This document shows positions 43,703 to 43,768 of a DNA stretch of 64,000 nt, one piece after another (positions within the stretch are counted from its first letter, which is position 1; the number at the start of each line of letters is the position of its first letter). A program made the translations under genes and the position numbers. Location: NCBI RefSeq assembly GCF_045037415.1, contig NZ_CP173438.1; one strand, written 5' to 3'. The notes beneath the pieces are model-generated. The model saw only the letters and a list, made by a program, of their open reading frames with translations, searched no databases and had not been told where the DNA came from. This stretch comes from Escherichia coli. Lineage in GTDB: Bacteria > Pseudomonadota > Gammaproteobacteria > Enterobacterales > Enterobacteriaceae.

Positions 43703-43768
43703 ATCCCATAATATGAGATGAAGTTTATATTGTGGGATATATCACCTTTTCCCCACGTCATTATGTGG
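43703..43768. promoter_or_regulatory. Candidate operator palindromes upstream of the IclR-family gene
   Basis: ATCCCATAATAT-N12-ATATTGTGGGAT inverted repeat (43703-43738) and CCACGTCATTATGTGG (43753-43768). Confidence 0.3.

Follow-up and report, generated by a model that had tools for sequence, protein, structure and literature searches.

The DNA analysed here, a stretch of 64,000 nucleotides referred to as the window, belongs to E. coli, and its positions 43584-43799 (216 nt) recur with 100% identity in many complete genomes, SK1144 and several human isolates among them. These 216 nt form the divergent intergenic region between rmuC, which starts at 43583 on the minus strand, and the gene of an IclR-family regulator with its ATG at 43800 on the plus strand, and the palindromes under study are located inside it. 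The regulator gene opens a compact accessory operon of 5.6 kb with six co-directional genes, which ends in a hairpin just before the converging udp gene.

43680..49281, unstranded: accessory segment, missing in K-12
43800..44567, plus strand: IclR-family regulator gene, 255 aa; first in the operon, presumed to encode the box-binding protein
44591-45595, plus strand: 2-dehydro-3-deoxygalactonokinase (KDGal kinase, DgoK homologue), operon gene 2
45585-46214, plus strand: KDPGal aldolase (DgoA homologue), operon gene 3
46239-47213, plus strand: TctC, tripartite tricarboxylate-type (TTT) transporter
47230-47736, plus strand: TctB, TTT transporter
47749-49239, plus strand: TctA, TTT transporter, last operon gene

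The regulator carries the Pfam domains HTH_IclR (PF09339) and IclR_C (PF01614), is annotated in RefSeq as an IclR-family regulator and is homologous to the solved structures of IclR, KdgR, AllR and TtgV (E = 3.8e-11 for TtgV). A dehydratase gene is absent from the E. coli island. On the other side of the intergenic region, upstream of rmuC, a LexA-box-like CTG-N10-CAG element, CTGTACAAACGTCCAG, was observed at 43629-43644; the block to which it belongs, CACAAAATAGAATTGTGCTGTACAAACGTCCAGTT, is conserved among Escherichia, Klebsiella, Pseudocitrobacter and one further enteric locus (L021). This element fits the SOS control of rmuC/yigN.

Of 5426 complete E. coli genomes, 1456 (~27%) contain the full intergenic region, and the remaining ones, K-12 included, match its first 96 nt only. 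By comparison with K-12, the left junction of the accessory segment was placed after ...CGCTACGCAAAA (43679) and the right one at 49274-49281 (position 1641 of the K-12 locus, L002). As this junction coincides with the stop codon of udp, the udp gene of the island-bearing strains is one codon longer (765 vs 762 nt, with the C-terminus ...LLK* vs ...LL*). The udp terminator hairpin of K-12 is replaced there by a GC-rich hairpin at ~49247-49269, common to udp and the converging tctA. The gene annotation of the island includes no mobility genes, and the island has no terminal repeats. Several enteric genera have the six-gene operon at this rmuC/udp site as well (L006, L010, L021-L023), with proteins 49-88% identical to those of E. 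coli; it was seen there in E. whittamii, another Escherichia species, a divergent E. coli, Klebsiella spallanzanii, K. indica, Pseudocitrobacter, Phytobacter and one enterobacterium with a 73%-identical regulator. In view of this shared site and of these identities, the operon looks like an old resident which has been lost from ~73% of E. coli and not like a recent insertion.

A preliminary description of the region had reported two palindromes about 30-95 bp upstream of the regulator ATG (43800) as candidate IclR operators. The distance is correct, and both elements are found at the reported positions.

43702..43739, unstranded: long inverted repeat (palindrome 1), 13-nt arms 43702-43714 and 43727-43739, 12-nt spacer, 12/13 (92%) complementary
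43753..43768, unstranded: palindrome 2, CCACGTCATTATGTGG, 6/8 pairs

Palindrome 1 had been given as ATCCCATAATAT (43703-43714), 12 nt and ATATTGTGGGAT (43727-43738), and 11/12 positions of these arms are indeed complementary. With the criterion of 12-nt arms, at most one mismatch and a spacer of at most 20, an equal or better repeat arose in 51/5000 dinucleotide shuffles (~1%) of the 216-nt intergenic region and in 35/5000 shuffles of its AT-rich island part. For 64 kb of uniform composition, about three chance matches over positions and spacers are expected by calculation. By itself the repeat is suggestive only, being notable locally and not window-wide. Three other E. coli genomes have a C at 43709, which makes the repeat a perfect 13/13, so that the T found at this position in the window is, judged from these genomes, a derived SNP. 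The T is shared with SK1144, SA186 and H105; the C is found in other E. coli and in other Escherichia species, and both T and C occur at the equivalent position among the orthologous sites. The perfect repeat was seen in five loci (L003, L004 and L029-L031) of other E. coli or Escherichia species. The long arms are 10-11/11 complementary in Escherichia only and 2-8/11 elsewhere, and the motif TCCC...GGGA persists in most loci. The 12-N12-12 palindrome was therefore ruled out as a conserved unit, its arms being complementary in Escherichia alone.

An inverted repeat of this kind may act as a nucleic-acid hairpin, that is, as an RNA stem-loop in a long leader (an attenuator or a stability element) or as a DNA cruciform. 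RNA of 43695-43800 folds with the repeat as a 16-bp stem at -26.5 kcal/mol (z = -3.2, no shuffle as good), and the C-to-T change at 43709 would keep a G-U pair. The comparison of promoters points away from such a structure. In an alignment of nine rmuC-side promoters (A1) the stem is paired in 69% of cells vs 66% in shuffles, with 46/500 shuffles as high, its covariation is no better than that of shuffled alignments, and the outer arms lose their complementarity outside Escherichia while TCCC and GGGA are conserved. Since pairing and covariation do not exceed the shuffles and the TCCC/GGGA ends are kept, the arms are conserved, as far as these alignments tell, as sequence and not as a stem. 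Moreover, the stem lies upstream of the predicted transcription start and a T-run is absent after it. No intrinsic terminator was called at the repeat, and the Rfam search gave a sub-threshold match only and no family match. A structured RNA or an intrinsic terminator was thus rejected on covariation, T-run and RNA family, and we consider a role of the repeat as a hairpin very improbable.

The orthologous promoters (~25 loci were compared) point to a different unit, i.e. two tandem 15-bp boxes, of which the reported arms are the outer halves.

43704..43718, unstranded: box 1, TCCCATAATATGAGA, a 15-bp pseudo-palindrome TCCC-N7-GAGA containing the reported left arm
43723..43737, unstranded: box 2, GTTTATATTGTGGGA, outer half strong and inner half weak, containing the reported right arm

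Hence the sequence and complementarity of the reported palindrome stand, and its shape is revised: the functional unit would be the pair of boxes, the perfect long repeat being specific to Escherichia. The consensus is TCCCAyATATnGGGA for box 1, of which 6/7 pairs of the dyad are formed in the window, and kyTTATAwTrTGGGA for box 2. Both boxes lie 63-96 bp upstream of the ATG and are 19 bp apart from start to start in the window (19-20 bp among the loci, with a gap of 4-5 nt). The invariant columns of A1 are almost only TCCCA.A, G.GA, box 2 and a downstream TCACC, the flanks being scrambled. As the inner half of box 2 is poor (GTTTATA), the second element may consist of one half-site only. A -10-like TATATT is also found within box 2, and an alternative promoter inside the operator is possible there.

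The conservation of the element upstream of orthologous clusters, proposed earlier as a check, was examined and found to be positive, in Enterobacterales as well as in other phyla. A TCCC-N7-GGGA box adjoins the orthologous regulators of Escherichia, Klebsiella, Phytobacter, Pseudocitrobacter, Brenneria and Serratia, and the same box is present by 44-54%-identical regulators in Collimonas, Sphingomonas, Vitiosangium, loci from metagenome-assembled genomes (MAGs) and Bifidobacterium. In all, box and regulator co-occur in ~20 of the loci examined, from Enterobacterales, Betaproteobacteria, Alphaproteobacteria, Myxococcota and Actinobacteria. The second box, 19-20 bp after box 1, was also found in Klebsiella, Brenneria, Serratia, Collimonas, Vitiosangium, the MAG loci and Bifidobacterium. 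In Brenneria tiliae, Serratia odorifera and two further loci (L025, L026) the operon stands in unrelated genomic contexts with the boxes at its head, so the boxes appear to travel with the regulator and not with rmuC. In Phytobacter massiliensis (L022 4956-6001) no rmuC is called between ubiE and the IclR-family gene, and the boxes are kept along with the CRP-like site described below.

The genes next to the distant regulators are of a similar kind. The 44-54%-identical regulators of Vitiosangium, Collimonas and Pseudomonas adjoin dgoK and dgoA, and in Bifidobacterium the regulator stands at the end of a sugar-acid dehydratase-aldolase operon. In B. amazonense (L014) the box TCCCACATATAGGGA at 1844-1878 precedes genes for an enolase-superfamily dehydratase, an HpcH-type aldolase and the IclR regulator (1921-4750); since this operon carries the same box, the subfamily is not restricted to DgoK/DgoA pathways. 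In Serratia- and Citrobacter-type loci there are two IclR paralogues, of which R1 heads the operon and R2 stands at its tail (L024 6001-6756, L025 8001-8765, L026 6001-6792, L007 4001-4741). The E. coli regulator resembles R2 (59-61%) more than R1 (50-52%), yet in these loci boxes were seen upstream of R1 and none upstream of R2.

The same comparison bears on whether the repeat is only a chance AT-rich palindrome or a relic of insertion, such as a terminal repeat or recombination site, with no regulatory role. It does begin within the accessory segment at a distance of only 23 bp from the left junction, and the roughly three repeats of its kind expected by chance across the window would allow for one here. 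Against this, the same boxes recur in other phyla and in loci whose junctions are altogether different, the island lacks mobility genes, and its right end carries no matching repeat, the best shared word being an AT-rich 9-mer inside tctA. The terminal inverted repeat of a mobile element was ruled out in the same way, with no right-end partner and no transposase or integrase, and we hold a chance or relic origin to be extremely improbable.

The specificity of the boxes was analysed with position matrices. A box-1 matrix built from the non-Escherichia enteric loci ranked 43704 as the best site on both strands of the 64-kb window (17.9, the next being 11.1), and the box-2 matrix placed 43723 first in the window (21.9). 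When the test was reversed and the matrix built on six non-Enterobacterales boxes, 43704 again came first in the 64-kb window (19.7 vs 11.4), and the promoter box came first in 9/9 other enteric loci. With the Enterobacterales-only matrix, the best match in the distant GC-rich loci (6-9 kb each) adjoins the regulator or heads its operon. The scores were 21.3 in Vitiosangium, 18.7 in Sphingomonas, 20.0 in B. amazonense, 21.6 in Collimonas and 12.3-12.9 in four MAG loci, and they were reached by 0-4/200 shuffles in all these loci except Collimonas, which was not shuffled. These distant boxes are within ~100 nt of the regulator gene, except in Bifidobacterium, where the box is ~2 kb upstream at the operon head (L014). 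The intergenic regions of the distant loci cannot be aligned with one another, and the box match is accordingly not simply a matter of shared DNA ancestry. Weak or no box matches were obtained in one MAG locus, in Pseudomonas (where the locus end cuts the first box) and in Burkholderia ubonensis, whose locus has no box next to a regulator of 55% identity and whose annotated start may be wrong.

Throughout the subfamily the recognition helix (T/S/P)RSTTHRL does not vary, except for K in place of R in the tail paralogue R2. YfaX of K-12 (30% identity, helix PKSTAYLL) has no such site; YfaX/RhmR was excluded from the subfamily on this identity and the absent motif. Taken together, the matrix tests, the second box and the results for the helix and YfaX tie the boxes, on comparative grounds, to this regulator subfamily and not to rmuC or to a global enteric factor. 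Operators of IclR-family factors are dyads of ~15-17 bp, often duplicated, and what is found at the locus is an adjacent IclR-domain gene and a 15-bp dyad, followed by a second box and situated in the promoter region, which co-occurs with the regulator independently of the flanking genes. The boxes are thus very probably a real binding site of the island's own IclR-family regulator. Matrix scans of the 64-kb window gave no further operator box inside the island, from which a single operator and promoter probably serves all six genes. The second-best box match in the window, TCCCACAATAAAAGA at 19347-19361 (10-18 bits depending on the matrix), lies in a core-genome intergenic region (yihD/mobA) between a minus-strand gene and a mobA-like gene. 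Being a single weak box in the core genome, it was rejected as a real box and is probably a chance match.

Of the two candidate operators reported, then, the comparison strongly supports the first and not the second. Palindrome 2 is at chance level, as 285 16-mers of its quality (6/8 pairs) occur in the window, equal to 0.96 per 216 nt. Its symmetry is not conserved, the element being non-palindromic in L004, in L021 and in every other genus, and it was ruled out as an operator. Its sequence is better read as the spacer of the promoter together with the TG of a putative extended -10 element. The promoter elements recognised in this part of the region are as follows.

43728..43749, unstranded: CRP-like site, TATTGTGGGATATATCACCTTT, core TGTGG-N6-TCACC at 43731-43746, centre 43738.5
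43766..43774, plus strand: candidate extended -10 element, TGgAACACT, 27 nt downstream in the window

The CRP-like site has 15/22 positions of the CRP consensus and overlaps box 2 by 10 bp, including its TGTGG half-site; the overlapping sequence in Escherichia is TGTGGgatataTCACC. The preliminary description had placed the right arm in an operator palindrome, and this arm is in addition half of the CRP-like site, which had been missed. A TGTGn-N6-TCAnn site, of the general form TTGTGc-N6-TCACC, follows directly after box 2 in 13/13 Enterobacterales loci, and its TCACC is invariant in the nine-promoter alignment. The core with two mismatches is not significant alone (18 matches in the window vs 28 expected); as core matches are not enriched, the case for a candidate CRP site is made by conservation and geometry only. 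Escherichia has 9 bp fewer between box 2 and TATATCACC than the other genera. Owing to this shorter spacing, box 2 and the CRP-like site overlap and the TGTGG of box 2 serves at the same time as the left half of the CRP-like site, whereas in the non-Escherichia Enterobacterales the boxes abut the CRP-like site and do not overlap it. Two good CRP-core matches, CGTGATACTCATCACC and AGTGATGCAAATCACA, were also noticed upstream of udp (50112-50179), a gene under the control of CRP and CytR, and were used informally as positive controls for sites with 1-2 mismatches.

Most of the 13 Enterobacterales loci have TGn followed by AAnAyT at 22-33 nt downstream of the right half-site; the two Klebsiella loci lack the TG, and Pseudocitrobacter and Brenneria match the pattern imperfectly. 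From this element, transcription is predicted to start near 43780-43781 with a leader of ~20 nt, which would put the centre of the CRP-like site near -41.5 to -42.5, a candidate class II geometry. A scan with the sigma-70 consensus gave no plus-strand promoter in the region; this fits a weak, activator-dependent promoter, without being positive evidence for one. If transcription begins there, the boxes would be at about -50 and -70 in E. coli and at about -60 and -80 in the other genera.

These positions could suit an activator equally well. The IclR-family protein on the boxes might recruit RNA polymerase from about -50/-70, or help CRP when the sugar acid is present, and MhpR, PobR and PcaU are activators of this family, some members of which activate from such positions. 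The boxes are upstream of the -35 region by the predicted start, they abut and do not overlap the CRP-like site in the non-Escherichia Enterobacterales, and the weakness of the predicted -10 element implies a need for an activator. On the other hand, box 2 and the CRP-like site share 10 bp in Escherichia, which makes their simultaneous occupancy unlikely. The boxes of Collimonas and Vitiosangium end only 23-33 nt before the regulator start codon, and those of Bifidobacterium end 43 nt ahead of the operon's first start codon; a core promoter would be expected at such positions, which favours occlusion. Further, sugar-acid IclR regulators of the KdgR type are established as repressors. Activation by the regulator is accordingly considered unlikely.

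Repression by the island's regulator is the mechanism that we favour. The regulator would bind both boxes as a tetramer, probably a dimer of dimers, with its two halves on the same face of the helix, an arrangement which suits the 19-bp box spacing. The whole iclR-dgoK-dgoA-tctCBA operon would be transcribed from a weak promoter of the extended -10 type, driven by the CRP-like site, and without inducer the regulator on the boxes would exclude cAMP-CRP and keep the operon, together with its own gene, at a low level. A 2-keto-3-deoxy sugar acid is predicted to release the regulator, after which CRP would activate the operon. What the regulated loci have in common is an aldolase, paired with a kinase or with a dehydratase, for 2-keto-3-deoxy sugar acids; from these enzymes, and from the lack of a dehydratase in the island, we infer 2-dehydro-3-deoxy-D-galactonate or a close analogue as the most likely effector. 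The model proceeds from the observed sequence, its conservation and its association with the regulator subfamily to a predicted binding, stoichiometry, direction of control, CRP role, transcription start and effector. As a whole, with a double-box IclR operator, exclusion of CRP and release by a sugar acid, we judge it to be likely, with good confidence.

A broader proposal can be made tentatively, and we would put it at somewhat less than an even chance. The double box may be the recognition code of a widespread IclR subfamily with the RSTTHRL helix, devoted to the catabolism of 2-keto-3-deoxy sugar acids from Actinobacteria to Enterobacterales, and a 9-bp deletion in the Escherichia lineage may have fused its second box with the CRP site and so turned adjacent sites into an either-or switch between repressor and CRP. 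If true, an accessory operon of about one quarter of E. coli, including ST131-like strains, would be under a strict repressor-or-CRP switch.

This study provides a candidate operator, a promoter model and a likely inducer class for an unstudied accessory sugar-acid operon, which is carried by ~27% of complete E. coli genomes and by several other enteric genera. The box motif can be used to predict the regulons of a broad, uncharacterised IclR subfamily. The use of sugar acids is linked to gut colonisation, and the switching of this operon could help to explain niche differences between E. coli lineages. No general principle of gene regulation is changed by the finding. Full-text literature searches returned no paper on the island, its regulator or the motif.

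Tetrameric IclR-family proteins are known to use operators made of two adjacent dimer sites, as in the 42-bp operator of TtgV (PDB 2XRO) and in BlcR, or of a palindrome with a third half-site, as in PcaU/PobR. The island operator, presumed to be bound by a winged-HTH protein of the same family, resembles them in being a composite of ~34-38 bp with pseudo-palindromic units about two helical turns apart, one strong and one weaker. It differs from them in its motif, TCCCAyATATnGGGA, and the tetramer here is a predicted one. Among the closer functional relatives, KdgR likewise governs a transporter, a kinase and an aldolase for a 2-keto-3-deoxy sugar acid, with an expected logic of a repressor released by the keto-deoxy acid. 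In contrast to the 2-keto-3-deoxygluconate regulon of KdgR in Enterobacterales, the island serves the galactonate branch (DgoK/DgoA homologues) and has a TTT transporter instead of KdgT. The KdgR box is about AAATGAAACAnTGTTTCATTT and is unrelated in sequence to the island boxes. The regulator scored below the cut-off of every curated NCBIfam equivalog (BhcR 143 vs 350, KdgR 130 vs 275, PcaR/PcaU 112 vs 285, IclR 93 vs 380, AllR 75 vs 406). On these scores, and on a motif which differs from the known boxes, membership in the KdgR, IclR or AllR box regulons was rejected.

By gene content, the island can be likened to a case in Salinivirga fredricksonii, where dgoK and a TTT transporter share a cluster with a predicted IclR-family 'GalR' and where a local regulon was proposed in silico (PMC5507952). 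The gene combination is the same in another organism, and that case too is in silico only. A functional precedent is offered by the K-12 dgoRKADT promoter, which is autorepressed by the product of the first gene and activated by CRP in a class II manner (PMC6003448); in a further report, DgoR is described as binding two inverted repeats that overlap the promoter (PMC7674646). As in dgoRKADT, the island regulator is the first gene of an operon with DgoK and DgoA. DgoR, however, is of the GntR/FadR family, recognises another operator sequence and senses D-galactonate, and its operon includes the dehydratase DgoD, whereas the island has no dehydratase and carries a TTT transporter. Seen beside these systems, the site at the head of the island appears to be, in kind, an ordinary and well-supported IclR-family operator with a plausible mechanism.
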